Positions 1,401 to 14,072 are shown, counted from the first letter of the stretch. The stretch is 64,000 nt of DNA from an uncultured Chthonomonadaceae bacterium (GCA_963835065.1 CAWIEK010000001.1:1-64000), one strand, 5' to 3'. Program-made: numbers and translations. Notes: a model not told the origin generated them from the sequence alone.

Positions 1401-3028
1401 TCATTGGTTTTTGCGCAGGACGCGGCCGCCGAGCGTCCGTGTGCGGGCCGTTTTCGTGGGCGACGCGCCCATTGACCAGACGGTTTCGATGCCCTTCGCG
1501 AACTGGTGCGGGTGGTCGAAGGTCGCGCAGTCGGTAACGGTCTCGGGGTTGTAAATCATAATGTCGGCATAGCAGCCCGGCGCAATGCGGCCCCGTTCGT
1601 GATCGAAACCCAGGCGGCGGGCGGGAAGCAGGGTCATTTTGTAGATGGCTTCGGCTTCCGTCAAAATGCCAAGTTCGCGGACATAACGGCCGAGAACGCG
1701 AGGGAACGTGCCATACGTGCGCGGATGGATGTTGGTGGCGTTGGCTTCGCCGTCGGGATGGGTTCCGCTGCCGTCCGAGCCGATCAACGTGAGGGGAAGG
1801 CGCATGACGTGGGCGATGTCGGTTTCGCCAATGGCAAAATTGACCGCGCTGACGTTGCCACCGGTTTCCGCCAGCAGGTCGAGAACGAATTCAATCGGGT
1901 TTTGGCCGGCTTCGCGGGCGAGGTTGGCAATGCGCCGTCCCTGCATGTTCGTGCTGCCGCGGCACACGCCGATCTGCATATTGCGCCAGGGGGAGTCGGG
2001 ACGAGATCGTCCCAATCCGGGTGGGCGGCGCGCATATCCGTTGCAATCGCGCTGACGCTGCGCGGGGTCGGATAGTCGGGCGGTCAGGTCTTCGCCCGAA
2101 CCGTTCAGGGCCCAGCGCGGCAGGGTCTGAATGCTCAGGGCGGTCATAAACGCGGTGTAGGGGTATTGATCCATCTGAACGTCAAGGCCGCGACTCGCGC
2201 TTCGCGCACCATTTGCAGCGTGGTTTGCGCCTTGCCCCAGTTAGCGCGGCCTTCCGCTTTATGGTGCGACAGTTGCAGGGGCAGGTTCGCTCTTTCCGTT
2301 ACGTTCAAGGCTTCCTGCACGGCCTCGACCAGCGTGTCGCCTTCATTGCGCAGGTGCGTGGCGTAAAAGCCGCCCCAATCGGCCACGATCCGGCACAGGT
2401 CGGCAAGTTCGTCTTCCCCGGCATAGGCGGAGGGGGGATATTCCAGCCCGGACGAAAACCCCCAAGCTCCGGCTTTCATGGCGGCTTCCAATTCGCGCCG
2501 CATAGGGGCTTGTTCGTCACCCGTCGGCGCGCGCTCGTCCAGCCCTACCACGCGCTTGCGCAGGGTTCCATGCCCGGCCAGAGGCACATAGTTGGTGGCA
2601 AAGCCCGTGTCTTCCACAATGCGCAGGTGTTCGGCAAAATCGTTCCACATGATGCGAGCACGATACGGAGCCAGCCAGCGCTTTTCAAACGCGAACACAT
2701 CGGCGTTCGTCGCCATTCCCAACGACAGGCCGCAGTTGCCGACAACCTGCGTGGTCACGCCCATGCCGATTGCGCTCGCCTGTCCGGGATCATAAGTTGC
2801 CGAAATGTCGGAATGGGTGTGAATGTCAATAAAGCCGGGCGCAACCCGCTGTCCCTGCGCGTCAATGATTTTTCCCGCCGTGTGCCCGCTTAAATCGCCG
2901 ACGGCAACGATACGCTCCCCTACAATGCCGACATCGGCGAGTTGTAGGGGCGTTCCGGTTCCATCCAGCACGGTTCCGCCGCATACCAGAAGGTCAAACT
3001 TATCGAAATTAGATGGTGACGTGTTCAT
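1401..3028 (-). CDS. N-acyl-D-amino-acid deacylase (D-aminoacylase) family amidohydrolase; frameshifted near 2170 and elsewhere
   Basis: APGFIDIHTHSD, GNCG, YATHLRNE, SHHK, DQYPY and HPRTYGTFPRVLGRYVRE across two ORFs. Confidence 0.9.
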
Positions 3029-4333: not shown

Positions 4334-4410
4334 GCCCTCAATCCCTAACCCCTTCTCCTCAAAACGCATTTCAAAAGCTTAGCGGAAATGCGTTTTGAGG
4401 AGAAGGGGAA
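4334..4410. repeat. REP-like element (CCCTCAATCCCT-ACCCCTTCTCC family) with long hairpin; may also act as terminator
   Basis: ccccttctcctcaaaacgcatttc ... gaaatgcgttttgaggagaagggga; relatives at 7080, 12445-12488 (reverse) and 19830. Confidence 0.7.
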
Positions 4411-4883
4411 CCTATTGAGATAGGCTCTAAACGAAAAAGATAGAAATATGTAGAGTCATCGTCGAAATCTTGGCAATGCAGCGCTTCCAGCCCGATGTCT
4501 CGTTGTGTCAGGTTGTAGGAGAGAGGCGTCGTGACCTCAGCAGCGTCAGGGCGGACGGGAGTGGACAGGCATCTTCTTGCGCCTCCCTTCCTGAGTTGAT
4601 AGTTGATAGGAACTGCCAACGTTCAGCCTTTGTGCCTTTATAGTAGATACTTGTACTACTTAGACAGATTGTGTGGGGCAAAAGGTTCACCTTTTTTCGT
4701 GTTGTTTGGCTTTTTTGCTGTCTTTTTCTTTTCCGCTGGTTTTTGTTTGCGGGATGGCTGTTGTTGGCGTTGTGCAAGGGAACCTATCGTGACATGATAC
4801 GGTGGTTCCCTGTTGCTTTTTGTGGTGTTGAGGCTTTAAGCGAAGTCGTTTGAAAATAATTGTGAAATTTCTACATTGGCCTC

Positions 4884-4912
4884 TTGCCAACGGCGCGGTA
4901 TTGCTTTATACT
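4884..4912 (+). promoter_or_regulatory. Sigma70-type promoter upstream of the RHS locus
   Basis: TTGCCA-17bp-TATACT. Confidence 0.7.
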
Positions 4913-5382: not shown

Positions 5383-7080
5383 ATGCTGGCTGCTGGAAGG
5401 GTAGGTTCAGGCAGGCGCGCTGTAACCGTATGTTCGCTATCATTGCCATTTATGAGCGCGTGTTCGCAGTGGAGGCGGGCGTTGCCTGGGCTGCTGTGGC
5501 TGTGGGGCGTGTGTGCCCTCAGTTCCCACGTGGGCGCGCAGACGCTGACGGGGGTGAGCGTGTCGCCGTCAAGCGTCATCGGCGGCTTGCAGACCAATCT
5601 CAGCGTTACCCTCAGCGCCCCGGCTCCCCCTGGTGGCCTGAGCGTTTCGCTGGGCTGCAATCCGGCGGGCGCGGTGGGACTGGACGCGAATACGCCCTTT
5701 CCCACAACCGTTACGGTTCCCGCCGGGCAAAGCGGTTGCAGCTACGCGGCGCTGACCAGCACCGCCAATGCGCCCACGCCGATTACGATTACGGCCACAT
5801 TGGGAACACAGTCGCAAACGACCACGCTCACGCTGCTGCCGGCGCATTTGCGGGTGACGAAAGTGATGCCCGCTTCCACGCTGCGCCTGCAATGGGATCA
5901 GACCAACTACAGTTTCTTCCAACTCCTGCGCGACGGCAGCCTGCTTGCCACGCTTCCGGGCAGTACCCTGACCTATGACGACGCCATTGCGGGGGGCTTT
6001 GCTCCCAACCACACGTATGTGTACACGCTGCTGGGACAAAGCAACGGCAGTTATGCGCAGATAGACATGGAGATGGTCATTCCCGGCAGCGTGACAACGG
6101 CGGGCAGCAACCAGGCGGTAGACAGCCGGCTGGACTTGCGCTACAGCGACAACCATCTGCTGGATCATGTGTTCGGCGCGACCACGTACCGGGGCGGCTT
6201 GTTCGTGGGCTACAGCAGCGATCCCGCGAAGGTGGGACGCAGTTTCGCCCGCTTCGGCCCATTCACGGGGGGACAGCCGACGAACTCCTGCTGGCGCGAA
6301 GGCAACATCAGCGCGTACTTTACGGGCATGGCGGGGCAGTCGGCAGGCAGCGTGAATGTGGGCTGTCAGGCGATTGCGGACGCGGGCTGGGATTACAGCA
6401 AGCTGGTCTGGAGCCTGACCGACCCGACGATCACGCCCTCCGCGCCAAGTTTCACGCCGGGCGCGGCCACGAACGGGGTTGCCATCAGCTATGACCCGGC
6501 CAACCCCCTTGTGGGCTGGCAGACGTGGGACTTGAGCAGTGTGCTGCACAGCGCCGTGATCGGCAGTCTACCGCTTTCCGTCGTATGGGCGGCCCTAGAT
6601 GAGACGAGCGCGGGGTGGGCGTACTTTGCCAAAACGGAGTACAACGCGAGTTTAGGACCGCGCGCTTTGTGGGCGTGGACGCTTCCCTACCCCATTTCCG
6701 GCTGCATCCAGCAGGCTGGCGGTTCGACGGGGCCGCCAACGGAATCAGGATGCATCTCGCCTTCGTCGGCTTCAATCACGCTGAACATGCACGGACTGGG
6801 CGTGGGTGACAGCGTGGTGGTGACGCTCACCGACACTTACAATGGCGGGAATGCCCTGCCGACCCAGGTGACGGTGACGGGCTTGCAGTGTCGGTTCCAA
6901 TTGCCCGTCGGCTACATTCACGGCAACGGCAGTGGCTGGCAAATCCAAGTGGGGGCGACGTGCAATGGCGTGTCGTCCGGGGGCAGTTTGACCAACCTGT
7001 CTACGGCGGTGAATTGCGCGGGCAGTGGCGGCAGCCTCGGTCCTCCGGTGGGCGGCGGCGGGTTGTCGCCGGGAGGATAG
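5383..7080 (+). CDS. Secreted beta-rich protein (Ig/FN3-like N-terminal part, DNRLRE-like central domain)
   Basis: TAAGGAG RBS; signal-like ...GLLWLWGVCALSSHVGAQ; Thr/Ser-rich; GRSFARF...WQTWDLS...AYFAKTEY...GPRALW pattern; domain names inferred. Confidence 0.7.
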   Translation: MLAAGRVGSGRRAVTVCSLSLPFMSACSQWRRALPGLLWLWGVCALSSHVGAQTLTGVSVSPSSVIGGLQTNLSVTLSAPAPPGGLSVSLGCNPAGAVGLDANTPFPTTVTVPAGQSGCSYAALTSTANAPTPITITATLGTQSQTTTLTLLPAHLRVTKVMPASTLRLQWDQTNYSFFQLLRDGSLLATLPGSTLTYDDAIAGGFAPNHTYVYTLLGQSNGSYAQIDMEMVIPGSVTTAGSNQAVDSRLDLRYSDNHLLDHVFGATTYRGGLFVGYSSDPAKVGRSFARFGPFTGGQPTNSCWREGNISAYFTGMAGQSAGSVNVGCQAIADAGWDYSKLVWSLTDPTITPSAPSFTPGAATNGVAISYDPANPLVGWQTWDLSSVLHSAVIGSLPLSVVWAALDETSAGWAYFAKTEYNASLGPRALWAWTLPYPISGCIQQAGGSTGPPTESGCISPSSASITLNMHGLGVGDSVVVTLTDTYNGGNALPTQVTVTGLQCRFQLPVGYIHGNGSGWQIQVGATCNGVSSGGSLTNLSTAVNCAGSGGSLGPPVGGGGLSPGG

Positions 7081-7128
7081 CCCTCAACCCCCGGCCCCTT
7101 CTCCCAAAAAAGCCTGGGAGAAGGGGAG
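7080..7128. repeat. REP-like hairpin (same family as 4334)
   Basis: gccctcaacccccggccccttctcccaaaaaagcctgggagaagggga. Confidence 0.65.
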
Positions 7129-7219
7129 ATGTTACACATAAAGCGGGGAGTGGCTAGATACACGTAGGGCTGCGGGAACATTGGCATTGGGCGCGGCGGG
7201 GCCGTGAGGAAAATACAGC

Positions 7220-8359
7220 ATGAACAGCAGACATGGCGTGAAGAGCAGAAATGGCATAACGAAGGCGGGCGCGGCGGGAATGGCGGGACGGCGGCGCGTG
7301 GGCGGGATGGTGGTGGCGGCGCTCGTAGGCGGCGTGACCATAGGTGGCCTGGGACTGCACCGGTGGCGGCAGGGGCAGGCGCACAATCCGCGCGTGTACA
7401 CGAGCGCGGGGCTGGGCGGCTGGATTGCGCCGGAAACGGGCAAGCCGCAGGCTGCGCCCAATCCTGACGATCCCCTTGTTGGACTGCGGGCGGACTACCG
7501 GGCGGGGAAGTGGGCGGACGTGGACCGGGAAGCGGCGGACGTGATGCAGCGGCAGCAGGACAGTGGGGAGGCGGGCAAGCGGCAGCAGGCGGGACAGGCG
7601 GAACTGCTGGCGGCATACGCAAGCGCGTGGCGCAAGGATTATGCGACGGCAGAAGCGCGGTTCCTGCGCGTCCAGCGGCTGGCGGGAGAACTGCCGGATC
7701 ATGGAGCGCGGAAAGTGCTTGTCGGCGAGATGCCCCTGCCGACATTGGAGGAAGAGGCCGGGTTCCAACATGCCGTCTGCGTGGGCGCGGCAGGGGATAA
7801 GCAGGGCGCGGAAGCGGAATACGATGACTTTATGCGGCAGTACCCGCAGAGCATTCTGGTTCATGCGGCGATCAAGCGCGTGACAAGGCTGCATGGGGGC
7901 GACATTCCCGCCGATGCCGAAGCCTTGTGGACGCAGGCCATGCGGCAGCAGAAAGCCAAGCAGGCGCGGGCGCAACGCGAAGGGGCGTTGTGCGGGCCGG
8001 AGTGTCTGGCGGAAGTGCTGCGGCGGCAGGGGAAAAGCGTGGAGGTTCACGCGCTGGCCGGGGAGATGCAGACGGGTGCGGACGGCACGAGTTTGCGGCA
8101 GTTGGCACGGGTGGCGAAAGCGCATGGATGGGCGGCGGTGGGCGTGGAACTGACGCAGGCAGGGTTGGGGAAGCAGGCATTGCCCTTGATCGCGCTGCTC
8201 AAGCCGGGGCATTATGTGCTGGTGGAGCGGGTGAGTGGGCAGGGCGTGAGGGTGTGGAACCCGGACGCGGAGGGCACGGGCCGAGCGGGAACAAAGACGT
8301 ACACTTTGGCGGAATGGCAGGGGGTGTGGAGCGGCATAGCGTTAAGCGTTGAGCGTTGA
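7220..8359 (+). CDS. Membrane-anchored TPR-like protein with C-terminal C39-family cysteine peptidase domain
   Basis: N-terminal TM (VGGMVVAALVGGVTIGGLGL), helical middle, then Q..ALCGPECLA...GTSLRQLARVAKAHG...LPLIALLKPGHYVLV...VRVWNP (Cys-His-Asn in place of the usual Asp). Confidence 0.85.
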   Translation: MNSRHGVKSRNGITKAGAAGMAGRRRVGGMVVAALVGGVTIGGLGLHRWRQGQAHNPRVYTSAGLGGWIAPETGKPQAAPNPDDPLVGLRADYRAGKWADVDREAADVMQRQQDSGEAGKRQQAGQAELLAAYASAWRKDYATAEARFLRVQRLAGELPDHGARKVLVGEMPLPTLEEEAGFQHAVCVGAAGDKQGAEAEYDDFMRQYPQSILVHAAIKRVTRLHGGDIPADAEALWTQAMRQQKAKQARAQREGALCGPECLAEVLRRQGKSVEVHALAGEMQTGADGTSLRQLARVAKAHGWAAVGVELTQAGLGKQALPLIALLKPGHYVLVERVSGQGVRVWNPDAEGTGRAGTKTYTLAEWQGVWSGIALSVER

Positions 8360-8533
8360 GGGTTGAGGGGGAGAGAGTAGCCGCGAATGAACGCGAATGA
8401 ACGCGAATGGGTGGGAGAGGTTGGCGGCGGCTACTTTCTTTTTTCTCCTTCTTTGCTGTGAAGTGTGGCAGGAACGCAGGAATTGGCGGGGCGTGTTGCG
8501 AATGTGGGTTTGTACGTCGGGAGCGGAGACGCA

Positions 8534-11500
8534 ATGAACACGAACATCATTTTTGGGTTGGGGCAGGGTCGGGGCGTGTTTGGCGAGGGCGCGGCGCAGG
8601 TGGGTCGTTTCGGCTGGAAGATGCGGAGTACGGCGCTTGTGGTGGCGCTGACATCGGGGGGGCTGCCGCTTGCCCTCAACGCGGCGCGGTGCGAGCAGGC
8701 GCGGCGGATTGCCGAAGCGAACAAGCCGCGCGTGGTCAATGAACTGCGGCCTGGCACAACGGACAAATTATCGCCGGAGCAGTGGGCGCAGGTGGATGCG
8801 CAGCGAGCAAAGGCACAGGCGGCAAAGCAGGCCAAGAAGCCCGATGTGCGCGTTCTCTCGGCTGCGGAGATGGCGCAGTGGAAGGGAAGCGGGCCGTACC
8901 GCAACAAGTATTGCGCGGGAACCCTGCCCTGGCATCGCAGTCTGCGGGACGTGAACCTGTGCAACGGCAACCTGTTCAAGAGCTTCACGGATGTGCAGGT
9001 GTCGCCGGGCAGAGGGGCAGGACTGGCCTTGCAGCGCACGTACAACTCTCAGGACGACCGACCCGGCGCGTTCGGAACCGGCTGGACACATGCGTATGAC
9101 ATTCGCATGGAGGAAGAGAACCCAAGCACCAACGAGACGAGCGACAGCCTCAACGTTGCGGATAGGACAGACTTCTTCGGCGGCAAGCACAAGTACCACC
9201 GGGATGCGGATGGCTTGTACTCCCCGCCTGCTTACCTCTTCGATGAGACGCAGAGCAGCTACCAGCAGTTCCTTGTCTCTGGGCCGGTTGTGCCGTTGGA
9301 TGATACCGAGACGGGCATGGATGGCACGGTCAAGCACTTCGTGAAGGTGAGCGACAACTGGCGGGCGTGTGACTACATTCAGGACCGGTATGGCAGCCGC
9401 ACCACCCTTGTGTATGGCGCCAGTGTCAACGGCAGCAGCGTTCCTACCCTGCTCTCGACGGTAACTGATCCTGTGGGGCGGCAGTTGGTGTTCACGTGGA
9501 ACAACTTAGGCACGACAGCGCAGCCTATTTACCGGATTGTGCAGGTAGACAGTCCGCAGTACAGCGTCGCCTACAGCTACAACGCGGATGCCAACCTCAG
9601 CAGCGTGACCCTTGATCCGGGCATGGTGGGAACCGGGCATCTGAACCGCACGACAAGCTACGGCTACAAGCGTGACGGGGCAGAATGGAACCGAAACCGG
9701 GCTGTTGGCGCGTCACTGACCCGCTTGGTCACACGATGAGTACACTACAGCTTGCCTGCGAGTGGCAGCTACACGGGACGGCATGGGTGACAGGAGCCAG
9801 TGGACCGGCCAGCAACAACGGACAAGCACGCAACCCTGACATGGACGTTCACGCCCCAGGCGGTGCAGGACACGTATCCGTTCAGCTGCATCGCCCCAAC
9901 AACGCGGGGTTGAGCGTCCTGTGCAAGACGGACAGCCAGTTGCGCAGCATGGCTTGCGGATGAGCGGCGTGTACATGTATCTAAGCTGGTACGACAGCGC
10001 CAACAACGTCACGCAGCAGACGAACACAGGCGGCAACCTCAGTCTGTTCAACCAACTCTGTGCGCCAACTCCGGCTCTACGGACCAGTTTATGACCTATG
10101 GGCCGCATGGCAACGTGCTGACCAGCAGCTGACTGCTTCCGACCCGAACGCGCCGAAAAATACGACAAGCTACTACAACGGCAGCCAGTTCTTCCAGAAG
10201 AAGTCTGTCACGGACATGAACGGGCACACAAGCACGTTCGGCGTCGGCAGCAAGTATGCGGGAACGGCAGGCGACCCGGACACCAACGCGGGAGACCGAG
10301 GCAGCGTGTTGTGGGTTAAGGATGCCAAGTACGGCGATGGAACTCTCAACAATACGGGAACACGCTTCTCCTACGCCTACAACAGCTACGGGCAGAAGAC
10401 AAGCGAGACAAACCAGAACGGCGTTGTGACCAACTACACGTATGGAGATGCCTACGGGAACTTGACGCAGGTTGTGCAAGACCCCAATCCACAGGGACAA
10501 TCCGGCCATCTTGCCCGCACCACCAGCATAGCGTATGACCAAGTGGGGCATGTTCTCACGTCCACTGATCCGATGGGACAGCAAAGCACATTCAACTACA
10601 ATGTGCTTGGACAGCCTACGTCCGCCGCTTTCCCCGCCACCTTCAACGCGCAAAACGTGCAGCAAACGCCTGCCGAAACCGTCAGCTACGGCTATGGCGC
10701 AAACGGCAGAACCGAAAGCGTCAGCGACAATCGTGGAACTACAACTCTGGCTTACGAGAGCAACAGTGACCGGGTTCATAGCACAACCGATCCTGTGACC
10801 GGCGCAACAACCTACACCTATGGATTGGCCGGAGAACGTCTGAGCATGAGTTTACCCGGCGGCGGCAGTTGGACATACGGGTATGACCGCGCCAACGTGA
10901 CAGGCTGCCTGAGCAAAGACGACCCCAACAGCCTCAATCACAGCCTTGCCACGCTCGCCGATGATCAGGGCAGACGCATAGACGTGTACCTTGACCAGAG
11001 CGGCAGATGTTGGGAAACGCTGACCAATGAGGCGTTTTCCGGCACAAACCTCGTTAGTTACACGGATACGCTCCCTACCTTCGACACGTTGCACAAGTGG
11101 CTGACGCAGTTGCAGAACACCTACCATTACCAGAATGCGCAGCAGCAATGGCAAAGCAAGTTGCTCGTGCAGAACAACTACACACTCGACAACGCAGGGC
11201 AACGGCTTACCAACCAGATCAGCAGTCTTGATCCTGTAACGGGCAATCCAACAAGCCGGACAGAGCAGTATGGCTATGATGCGTTGAACCGACTGACAAC
11301 TGTGGATTATGGTGACGGGCAGACGCAGGGCTACACGTTCGACAGCATGGGCAACCGCCTGACGAAAACGGACAGCAGCACAGGCAATGAGAGCTATGTC
11401 GCCAACGCCGCCAACATGCTCACGAGCCGAACTGTGGGAGGAACAACAAGCAGCTATACCAATGACACCAATGGCAATACGCTCACAGGAGGTGGACGCA

Positions 11501-12390
11501 CAAATACATGGGACAGCCAGAACCGCATGACCAAGTGCGTCAACGGTACAAACACCAGCACGTTCACCTATGGCTGTGATGGTATCCGGCATAGTTCCGT
11601 CGTCAACGGCGTCAGCACCGACTTCGTTCTCGACAACAGCATGTTTGTGCGCGAACTGCACACTGGCAATGTGAAGGCCACTTACTTTATGGGTGCAAGC
11701 GGGCCAGCGTATCGCAGAGACGATGCGAATGGCGGAACCGTCCGATGGTACTTGTACGACGGCTTAGGCTCTGTTCTTGGGGAAGTAGACCCAAGCGGCA
11801 ACATTACGGGAACCAGAAAGCATGATGTATACGGACTTACCAGAGGCACGACCGGAACCATTACCAGCAAGCATGGCTTCGTAGGCAATCTAGGACATGC
11901 CAGCGAAGACGAAACCTGCCTCATCTACATGCAGCATCGGTATTATGATGCGCAGACAGGAAGGTTTGTTAGCGAGGATTCTGCTCATCAAGGTAGCAAT
12001 TGGCAGCCATATTGCGGCGACAATCCCGTATGCAATGTAGATCCCACTGGACTGTTCTTTTTGGGTGATATGCTATGGGGAACAACAAATGATAATACTG
12101 ACGCCATGATTGAAGCTGCGAACGCGCGTCTCACTCAACAATGGGGAGAAAATGCCATCCAGAGGATACTAACAAAATGGGCGGATCAGTTCGCAGAAGG
12201 TATATGGGACGAGACATTCACAAGTTCAAGCTGGACAGAAGGAGAAGCAGGTGCGTGGCGAATCGACCTAGTTGGGGTAGATGGCCGCTACCGAATTGCG
12301 CTTGATCTCACGCATGATGTTCCTCATGTCAACTGTTACGGCTGGGAGTATCCGCACTTTACTCCGATAAGCGATTTATTACCCTTCTGA
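8534..12390 (+). CDS. RHS/YD-repeat polymorphic toxin with DUF6531-like N-terminal domain (several apparent frameshifts at ~9670-10130)
   Basis: VNLCNGNL...LQRTYNSQ...FGTGWTHAY; YD repeats; core YMQHRYYDAQTGRFVSED...YCGDNPVCNVDPTG; C-terminal tip 12052-12390. Confidence 0.9.
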
Positions 12391-12804: not shown

Positions 12805-13641
12805 ATGAGTAACAGAATTGCAGTTTTATTTCGTCGATCACTAATAACTCAAGGCACTAACCAAGACAATGTGAACTATTATATGTTAAGTGTAAGAGAT
12901 GAGAGATACCTTCGACCAAACATAAACATACAAACTGAATTAGTTAAATCATATGAGAATTGCGCATCCATCCCATGGGTTAGAAGTATGGATTTAAATA
13001 TTGATGATAAACTTTTAAACTTGACAATCAATAGCAATATTTTTCAAAAATTATTTTATATTGAAATATTTAGCAACATGAATTTGATGTTGTGGACCCG
13101 AAATATGTCTCAGCCACTAGTTGATAAAGCGGTTGCTCTTGATATATCTACCAAAAAGGTGGTGTATAATGCACATCCTTCGCTTAAATTGCCCCAGATA
13201 GCAATGTGCTATGAACTGAAAACATCGCGTGAGTTGGTCGAACTGTTATGGCCCGATTACGTAGGCAATCTTATCAATGCAGTTGGCATTGGGGTATATC
13301 CTTTCAGTAAACATATGTTGGATGAAGTAGAAAACTGTGACATTGATGAGCGTTTTAACAATTACAATAATTTAAATACTACAAATAAACCGTTATTATC
13401 TTCAGTTGAGCTTTTAAAAAACTGGCAATATACATTAGCACTGGACGTATCTAAGTACGATTCACCTGATTTATTTTACACCATACCAGCTTCATATGCA
13501 GAACAGTTTGAGTGGTGGATTGCCGACGCTGTGGAGCAAGAAGGTTACCGGCTTTATATTTTACCAATGTATGAAAACATTATCAAAAACTGGATTGGTT
13601 ATGGAATATTGCCGATTCTGGTGGATGAGGGCGTTAGATAG
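12805..13641 (+). CDS. AT-rich hypothetical protein, candidate RHS immunity protein
   Basis: 278-aa ORF with AGGAG RBS, strongly AT-rich relative to flanks, first gene after the toxin tip. Confidence 0.65.
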   Translation: MSNRIAVLFRRSLITQGTNQDNVNYYMLSVRDERYLRPNINIQTELVKSYENCASIPWVRSMDLNIDDKLLNLTINSNIFQKLFYIEIFSNMNLMLWTRNMSQPLVDKAVALDISTKKVVYNAHPSLKLPQIAMCYELKTSRELVELLWPDYVGNLINAVGIGVYPFSKHMLDEVENCDIDERFNNYNNLNTTNKPLLSSVELLKNWQYTLALDVSKYDSPDLFYTIPASYAEQFEWWIADAVEQEGYRLYILPMYENIIKNWIGYGILPILVDEGVR

Positions 13642-13745
13642 CTATGACATACCTTCCGATTTTTGAGGGTAGCTCATTTCTATGTATTCTAAACTTTTGT
13701 ACCAGGCAGTTCACTTCGTTCAACGTTTAAGCAGAATCCTACGCA

Positions 13746-14072
13746 ACGTGAACCTGTGCAACGGCAACCTGTTCAAGAGCTTCACCGATGTGCAGGTGTC
13801 GCCGGGACGAGGCGCAGGACTGGCCTTGCAGCGCACGTACAACTCTCAGGATGATAGACCCGGCGCGTTCGGGGTTGGCTGGACACATGCCTATGACATT
13901 CGGATGGAGGAAGAGAACCCAAGTACGAACGAGACGAGCGACAGCCTCAATGTGGCAGACAGGACAGACTTCTTCGGGGGCAAGCACAAGTACCATCGGG
14001 ATGCGGATGGCTTGTACTCCCCGCCCGCCTACCTCTTCGATGAGACGCAGAGCAGCTATCAGTAATTTCTTG
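13746..14072 (+). pseudogene. Duplicated fragment of the RHS N-terminal (DUF6531-like) region, terminated by TAA
   Basis: Near-identical to 8949-9275; differences mostly synonymous; CAG replaced by TAA at 14063. Confidence 0.9.

Follow-up and report, generated by a model that had tools for sequence, protein, structure and literature searches.

A double-glycine-type leader and stand-alone C39 peptidase for the probable N-terminal maturation of RHS proteins in Armatimonadota

We have examined a locus in which a stand-alone C39 peptidase gene precedes the gene of a likely antibacterial RHS toxin, in a 64,000-nt stretch of DNA from an uncultured Chthonomonadaceae bacterium (GCA_963835065.1 CAWIEK010000001.1:1-64000; the window, to whose whole length all coordinates refer), the closest named relatives of which carry the labels Chthonomonadales/Armatimonadota. 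Three genes on the plus strand make up the module. The first (5383..7080) encodes a predicted secreted protein (565 aa from an uncertain start) that combines one or more Ig-like repeats with a DNRLRE/CBM96-like domain, and is a conserved partner that the first-pass annotation had not recorded. The second (7220..8359) encodes the 379-aa peptidase, with a membrane anchor at about residues 27-51, a YTxxGYGG linker, TPR-like helices (87-255) and a C39 domain (251-378). The third, the RHS gene, opens with a predicted Sec signal peptide (8534..8692) and a predicted pro-region of ~65 aa (8693..8890) ending in a double-glycine-type leader (8855..8890), continues with the predicted mature start (GPYRN), the DUF6531 lid (8951-9118) and the first YD hairpins (8891..9739), and closes with the RHS shell and repeat-associated core (10060..12051) and a variable C-terminal tip (12052..12390).

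The peptidase had been described from the sequence as a transmembrane segment, a helical/TPR-like region and a C39 domain with Cys, His and Asn, a description with which Pfam, structure prediction, Foldseek and alignment agree. Pfam Peptidase_C39 (PF03412) is matched at residues 251-378 (E 2.8e-15, 56.8 bits against a cut-off of 22), the hydrophobic segment begins at about residue 27 behind an Arg-rich stretch, and the AlphaFold2 model (predicted local distance difference test, pLDDT, 85.8) has helices at 87-255 and a C39 fold at 258-378. The best Foldseek matches of this model are the peptidase domains of PCAT1, ComA and LahT, with a root-mean-square deviation of 1.6-2.4 Å, and its TPR matches are YbgF/BamD. 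Cys258 (7991..7993) and His331 (8210-8212), which align with the catalytic Cys and His of PCAT1, are invariant in 37/37 aligned peptidase sequences; the third triad position is Asn347 (8258-8260) in the window copy and Asp in the family consensus. The NCBIfam FapD model scores 12.6 bits on the peptidase against a cut-off of 330, and an ESM Atlas match to a cluster commonest in Verrucomicrobiota (score 0.93) serves as a lead only. The locus had been stated to have no ABC transporter; in the genome, none of the six PF03412 matches is a peptidase-containing ABC transporter (PCAT), and a PCAT route was rejected on this basis. A separate observation concerns the YTxxGYGG-type motif behind the anchor (7340-7420, residues 59-67), in which Y60, G64, G66 and G67 are near-invariant and which is modelled as disordered; it is possibly a docking strand.

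The leader, LSAAEMAQWKGS at 8855-8890, reads L(-12) S(-11) E(-8) M(-7) W(-4) G(-2) S(-1), with a predicted cut at 8890/8891, and is followed by GPYRNKY. It lies just before DUF6531 (Pfam, residues 140-195 of the open reading frame (ORF) 8534-9739), where the first-pass annotation had placed it, and is internal, ~65 residues behind the predicted Sec signal, not an N-terminal export signal. Its spacing, hydrophobic at -12, -7 and -4 with Gly at -2, agrees with the rule given for LahT, which calls for hydrophobic residues at -4, -7 and -12 (PMC6363468, PMC10885120; these and all papers below are cited from the part of their text that was available). In 103 RHS homologues the leader columns are strongly conserved, with Leu at -12 in 96/101, Ser or Thr at -11 in 96/101, Glu at -8 in 83/101, Met at -7 in 92/101 and Gly at -2 in 97/100. 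The predicted conservation of the motif held for these columns and failed at P1, the residue before the cut: this is Arg in 76 of the 103 homologues, Ser in 13, as in the window copy, and Ala in 9, and the strict motif with Gly, Ala or Ser at P1 occurs in only 11/103. A residue-level link between the P1 Arg and the peptidase pocket, sought by motif only, was not established.

Among the open frames of the genome (4.53 million residues) the strict motif has six matches, and because five of these lie at RHS N-termini, the sixth being in an unrelated protein, the motif is not explained by chance. The five are the window copy, a second-haplotype copy on contig C28, one on C16 and two on C53; the window and C28 matches are circular, and the C16 and C53 RHS proteins are only 24-31% identical to the window RHS. 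A C39 gene lies directly upstream of the motif-bearing RHS on C16 and at C53:470334, and the third, on C53, stands at a contig start. On a further contig, an RHS with a leader ending in Gly-Arg (C41:59126-60199) has no C39 match beside it on the same contig; this RHS is a candidate for processing in trans by a peptidase of the C16/C53 type.

The whole pro-region is missing from five of the 103 homologues (P0143, P0144, P0147, P0152 and P0156), removed en bloc. An Ala of the signal-peptidase type is joined directly to G-Q-Y-R-N, G-P-Y-R-N or G-P-F-R-N in P0144, P0147 and P0152, and the same register is seen at the start of P0143 and P0156. The predicted mature start is thus independently fixed by proteins that join the signal directly to it, and both the GPYRN start and the cut register of the original proposal are upheld. 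In the leaderless case for which a genome is available (L159, G108; 96% complete, 8 contigs), the DNRLRE gene is kept and PF03412 matches number 0.

A second natural variant is a fused signal-TPR-C39-RHS protein, in which the leader lies directly behind the C39 domain. The profile for this form was built from 7 such stretches with the motif included, so that its matches indicate existence and breadth, not frequency: among the best 150, 104 are RHS-like (≥900 aa), with the His in 104, the Cys in 90 (14 unaligned) and Gly-Gly after the C39 domain in 89. One member of the fused-protein cluster is labelled Ca. Abyssobacteria, and the domains of the fused proteins had already been named by automated database annotation. 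The residue after Gly-Gly is Cys in 73/104, usually as Cys-Cys followed by a Gly/Cys-rich linker; a cut there would expose an N-terminal Cys that could enter a disulfide bond or be modified. Two further fused signal-TPR-C39-RHS genes, frameshifted and with no obvious leader, occur in the same genome as the window (C48:91019 onward and C3:96583 onward). Other stand-alone C39 types in the phylum (L125-L134, L071, L077, L083, L115) were recognised by reading their sequences: in some the C39 domain has Ig-like repeats after it, in others it follows a long beta-rich exported domain, and a third type joins it to a multi-pass membrane protein.

Of 73 distinct loci with a TPR+C39 gene, drawn from genomes and metagenomes, 58 show the expected linkage of peptidase homologues with RHS genes, carrying same-strand RHS sequence with the peptidase either before or after it; 12 of the remaining 15 end early at contig ends. 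A profile search gave matches in 83/401 genomes of the phylum, a count that takes in other C39 proteins. The presence of the leader was scored with a matrix trained on the window's clade, a pass being >5 bits, after 60 extra DUF6531 loci had been fetched from the family search, excluding loci already fetched for C39, and after removal of duplicates, 5 too-short rows and 12 fused rows. The leader passed in 64/66 RHS sequences whose locus has a stand-alone C39 on the same strand, versus 4/50 without, and in 31/32 of the scored rows L085-L135, which are mostly of clades other than that used for training. The two misses of the 66 are L120, which is motif-like at -3.9 bits, and L219, in which the motif is in another frame. 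Close RHS relatives without C39 (L159, L173, L166, L174, L170, L183) lack the leader. We do not count a Fisher test (p 4e-25) as evidence, since the rows are kin and the two sets were sampled differently. With kinship removed by means of a FastTree phylogeny, seven independent pairs gave means of 4.2 concordant, 0 discordant and 2.8 unchanged (median p 0.125). Among the RHS proteins of related genomes and metagenomes the leader appears to track the peptidase, an association that is no more than suggestive once kinship is removed.

In a model of peptidase residues 54-379 with RHS residues 62-134, the leader docks on the catalytic site of the C39 domain. The complex scored 0.78, the best of 3 controls 0.00, and the score mark is one reached by 116/157 solved complexes and 2/215 mismatches; the partner had a pLDDT of at least 63, and runs agreed in at least 77% of contacts. 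RHS 102-122 makes its confident contacts with peptidase 255-259, 287-293, 307-319, 330-332, 347 and 349, Cys258 and His331 among them. The predicted structure has a helix at RHS 81-101 and a leader helix at 110-115, followed by flexible residues 117-120. Similar complexes have already been solved (6MPZ, 6V9Z), so that the pass may rest on this likeness, and the model speaks for likeness and fit only.

The hydrophobic segment ascribed to the RHS protein itself is present, and homologues are alike in this respect. Their consensus, R...hydrophobic...PAxA, places Pro-Ala-x-Ala/Gly after the hydrophobic stretch (Pro in 89/98; Ala 70 and Gly 17 of 96 in the -1 column). The window copy, with start codon candidates ATG 8534 and GTG 8600, reads A-R-C where signal peptidase is predicted to cut, near residue 53. 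Combined, the signal-peptidase sites of the homologues and the leaderless forms make a cleavable Sec signal likelier than an anchor. The earlier view, in which the RHS is tethered and then released, consequently gives way to a two-step maturation: the segment would be removed, and the C39 peptidase would take a second, ~65-residue pro-region.

We consider it quite probable, from the sequence comparisons and the complex model, that the RHS protein is exported through Sec and that its double-glycine-type leader is cut outside the cytoplasm by the adjacent anchored TPR-C39 protein, giving the mature GPYRN start. The RHS protein would exit the cytoplasm via Sec and signal peptidase would take its first ~53 residues, leaving the ~65-residue pro-region with the hydrophobic -12/-7/-4 positions, Gly-2 and variable P1 seen at its end. 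The C39 domain, predicted to be anchored N-in/C-out, would then bind the leader as a strand plus a short helix and cut after P1. Such a cut would replace the self-cleavage before Pro at the DUF6531 start of other RHS proteins, and would license the toxin-loaded shell for folding, hand-over or release. The product of the upstream gene, with its DNRLRE and Ig-like parts, is likely a surface carrier comparable to the N-terminal portion of WapA, and the Asp motif of the core would free the variable tip, by analogy with characterised RHS proteins. All N-terminal cleavage routes would give a free N-terminus just before the lid, the C39 route adding a controlled step.

In the window copy the lid lacks the Pro that usually marks the N-terminal self-cleavage site. 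The corresponding residue of the 103 homologues is Asp (95), Gly (5), Asn (2) or Ser (1) and in no case Pro, and Pro is found at the DUF6531 start in 0/58 readable C39-adjacent RHS sequences. Several RHS proteins without C39 and without Pro have a signal peptide near the lid. Other RHS proteins (L168, L180, L190, L192, L195) carry N-terminal motifs such as RRDFLK directly before the lid, with no leader and no C39 nearby; we take these motifs to be twin-arginine-like, which suggests that Tat-exported RHS proteins may occur in the phylum.

Several observations weigh against cleavage of a Sec-exported RHS by the C39 peptidase. The Arg found at P1 in most homologues, and in 40/64 leaders, falls outside the rule of GG, GA or GS endings for double-glycine leaders (PMC10885120). 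The Gln six residues before the Cys, present in the window copy, is not conserved in the family; the role of this Gln in LahT has been doubted (PMC6363468). Without kinship the association of leader and peptidase is not significant. Four leader-bearing RHS genes (L150, L154-L156) have no C39 in the sequence fetched around them, their genomes all having C39 genes elsewhere; three peptidase loci (L077, L093, L222) have no RHS within sequence extending >5.8 kb on both sides, and some fused C39-RHS proteins have no leader and keep Asp-Pro (L140, L141, L169, L171, L178). Many RHS proteins without C39 also lack the Pro site, which makes the complementarity of the two cleavage routes one-way. The RHS copy is frameshifted in the assembly, the toxicity of its tip is suggested by architecture only, and the cut is itself a prediction from sequence and model.

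Some of these points would suit a C39 protein that is only a receptor or chaperone for the leader, a role played by the C39-like domains of type I exporters, the cut being made by a different protease, perhaps an Arg-specific one, or not at all. The prevalence of Arg at P1, the want of a conserved Gln and the Asn at the third triad position of the window copy accord with such a role, a binding model cannot show catalysis, and C39-like chaperone domains are mentioned in PMC5557850. We nevertheless judge this unlikely, as the Cys/His pair is invariant in 37/37 and kept in the fused forms, Gly-2 is conserved in 97/100 homologues, canonical GG/GA endings occur in the fused proteins and in other clades, and the modelled interface includes Cys258 and His331. 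That the hydrophobic segment is instead an uncleaved anchor, so that the RHS is tethered and the C39 cut is the release step, is less probable still; the A-R-C of the window copy, not the usual A-x-A, speaks for it, whereas the Pro-Ala-x-Ala/Gly sites of the homologues, and the leaderless proteins, in which a segment of this kind runs straight into the mature start, speak for removal. Least credible, and in our estimate very improbable, is a peptidase acting mainly on another substrate, either the upstream DNRLRE protein or a target-cell protein, with the RHS motif an inherited structural element. The non-significant phylogenetically independent contrasts and the three peptidase loci without a nearby RHS leave room for it, and C39 is known as a toxin domain (PMC3482391), but close RHS relatives without C39 are also without the leader, the DNRLRE gene stays beside a leaderless RHS in a genome without a C39 match, the L085-L100 loci keep the leader in the absence of a DNRLRE homologue, and the strict leader motif was not found in the upstream DNRLRE protein. 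Processing of the exported RHS by the anchored C39 peptidase is the reading retained below.

The RHS gene of the window is split into ORFs 8534-9739 and 10060-12390 by a cluster of small indels (9666..10138), in which the frame matching the intact homologue P0057 changes offset 8 times; this too is absent from the first-pass annotation. Relatives' public contigs have indels at the same places, and purB and an amidohydrolase gene (55-1264, 1401-3028) are split by indels in the window and whole in the syntenic C28 copy. On these grounds the RHS frame breaks are likely assembly consensus errors; a recent pseudogene is the less probable reading. The window contig is error-prone, and other broken genes in it are to be read cautiously. 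The C28 copy was considered as a paralogue and rejected as such, being syntenic and 93% identical, which identifies it as a second haplotype.

Most of the 103 RHS homologues are of 1,100-1,550 aa. The homologue P0078, listed by NCBI as Capsulimonas corticalis CCAX7_007900, has an intact leader. The RHS features, YD repeats, a DUF6531 lid and an RHS-associated core, are present in the window copy, the shell and lid fold of which match T6SS (type VI secretion system) Rhs effectors (Foldseek E 1e-10 to 1e-8); the core ends in DPTG, with both Asp of the C-terminal self-cleavage motif. Extra core cassettes are present in relatives. The 112-aa tip, a predicted toxin, has no Pfam match above cut-off and no match among 88 homologue tips. 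Behind it lies a low-GC (0.42) ORF of 278 aa (12805..13641, plus strand), a candidate immunity gene by position only, for which no family was found. Pfam, NCBIfam and ESM Atlas gave nothing usable on the function of either the tip or this ORF. A truncated second RHS DUF6531 copy (13682..14071, plus strand), 96% identical and without signal or leader, follows and ends at a stop. Truncated RHS N-terminal repeats also lie downstream of the toxin gene at L022:7877-8257 and L023:14122-15276, the latter locus having the peptidase repeated as well. Orphan RHS cassettes are usually C-terminal.

The upstream protein matches NF033679 below the cut-off (E 0.0015), and its homologue L022 does so above it; CBM96 is present in 4/5 of its homologues scanned. 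A DNRLRE homologue occurs in 34/73 peptidase loci, and in none of the L085-L100 group. A promoter and terminator scan gave one sigma-70-like site upstream of the module (4884-4912), a consensus match only. Short intergenic repeats, with many copies genome-wide, lie at 4350-4800, 7080-7130 and 8340-8410, and a local tandem gcgaatgaac repeat stands ahead of the RHS gene.

With the fused and split forms taken together, we lean, by a little, towards a widespread undescribed class of RHS delivery in which an extracytoplasmic pair of bacteriocin-type leader and C39 peptidase, with no ABC transporter, gates maturation. This class would comprise fused proteins that cut themselves at Gly-Gly and split three-gene modules with a peptidase shifted to Gly-Arg, and would be lost by joint deletion of peptidase and pro-region. 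How and why RHS proteins are cut at the N-terminus is poorly understood (PMC10684867), and no substrate has been settled for exported C39 peptidases, FapD among them (PMC5557850); to both questions the present system brings a candidate enzyme with its predicted substrate and cut site, and leaderless and fused forms as natural controls. If the proposed processing is correct, C39 joins the toxin-processing proteases, this is the first C39 peptidase predicted to cut after Gly-Arg, and the system shows how a little-studied soil and freshwater phylum, Armatimonadota, arms its competition toxins. Each of the parts belongs to a known kind; what appears to be undescribed is their joint use as a route of RHS maturation, probably with cutting after Gly-Arg. 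No description of C39 processing of RHS proteins was found in the literature searched, a search that left most subscription journals outside.

The systems most like the present one in their enzyme are those of the PCAT/AMS type (LahT150-LahA, ComA-ComC, PCAT1-CtA), which share the C39 fold, the Cys/His pair and a leader with hydrophobic -12/-7/-4 positions and Gly-2 (PMC6363468, PMC10885120). Unlike these, the system described here has no ABC transporter and a separate membrane-anchored TPR peptidase that is predicted to face outward; its leader is internal, behind a Sec signal, its predicted substrate is an RHS protein of 1,200-1,400 aa, and Arg predominates at P1. FapD, from the amyloid system Fap of Pseudomonas, is likewise a stand-alone Sec-exported C39, the catalytic Cys of which is needed for secretion (PMC5557850). 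FapD is, however, soluble and periplasmic, with an unclear target, and belongs to a fibre system with the FapF barrel (PMC5557850), in contrast to the TM/TPR-C39 protein paired here with RHS toxins. The survey of PMC3482391 likewise has peptidases that mature RHS toxins or set them free, in some cases at the N-terminus; the available part of that survey places C39 (Tox-PLC39) solely among the toxin domains, not among the processing peptidases, and mentions no double-glycine leader.

The characterised RHS proteins resemble the substrate. The T6SS Rhs effectors Tse5, RhsA and Rhs1 share the shell and lid fold and the C-terminal Asp motif (PMC10684867), and these proteins and WapA-CT1 are cut before Pro at the start of DUF6531 by a mechanism called little known (PMC10684867, PMC12704120). 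Here, by contrast, there is no PAAR/VgrG link in the locus, and N-terminal processing is likely carried out by a dedicated protease and not at X/Pro. The original statement that the locus has no T6SS (VgrG/PAAR) gene was confirmed: no PAAR was found in the RHS or the locus and no TssC/VipB match in the genome (92% complete), VgrG-like and PAAR genes lying on other contigs, and a T6SS route was rejected. The genes on these contigs, VgrG-like and PAAR on C44 (C44:80000-94000) and PAAR on C65, occur in a genome without a VipB match, and those of C44 may form another injection-type locus. In architecture the RHS resembles a split WapA; among WapA-type proteins, WapA-CT1 of S. suis shares the Sec signal, DNRLRE, DUF6531 lid, RHS shell, variable tip and an N-terminal cut just before DUF6531 (PMC12704120). 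LysM was not found. Relative to WapA, whose N-terminal surface part the upstream DNRLRE/Ig-like protein resembles, the DNRLRE part is here a separate gene, the self-cleavage Pro is absent, and a predicted trans-acting C39 peptidase and its leader are added.

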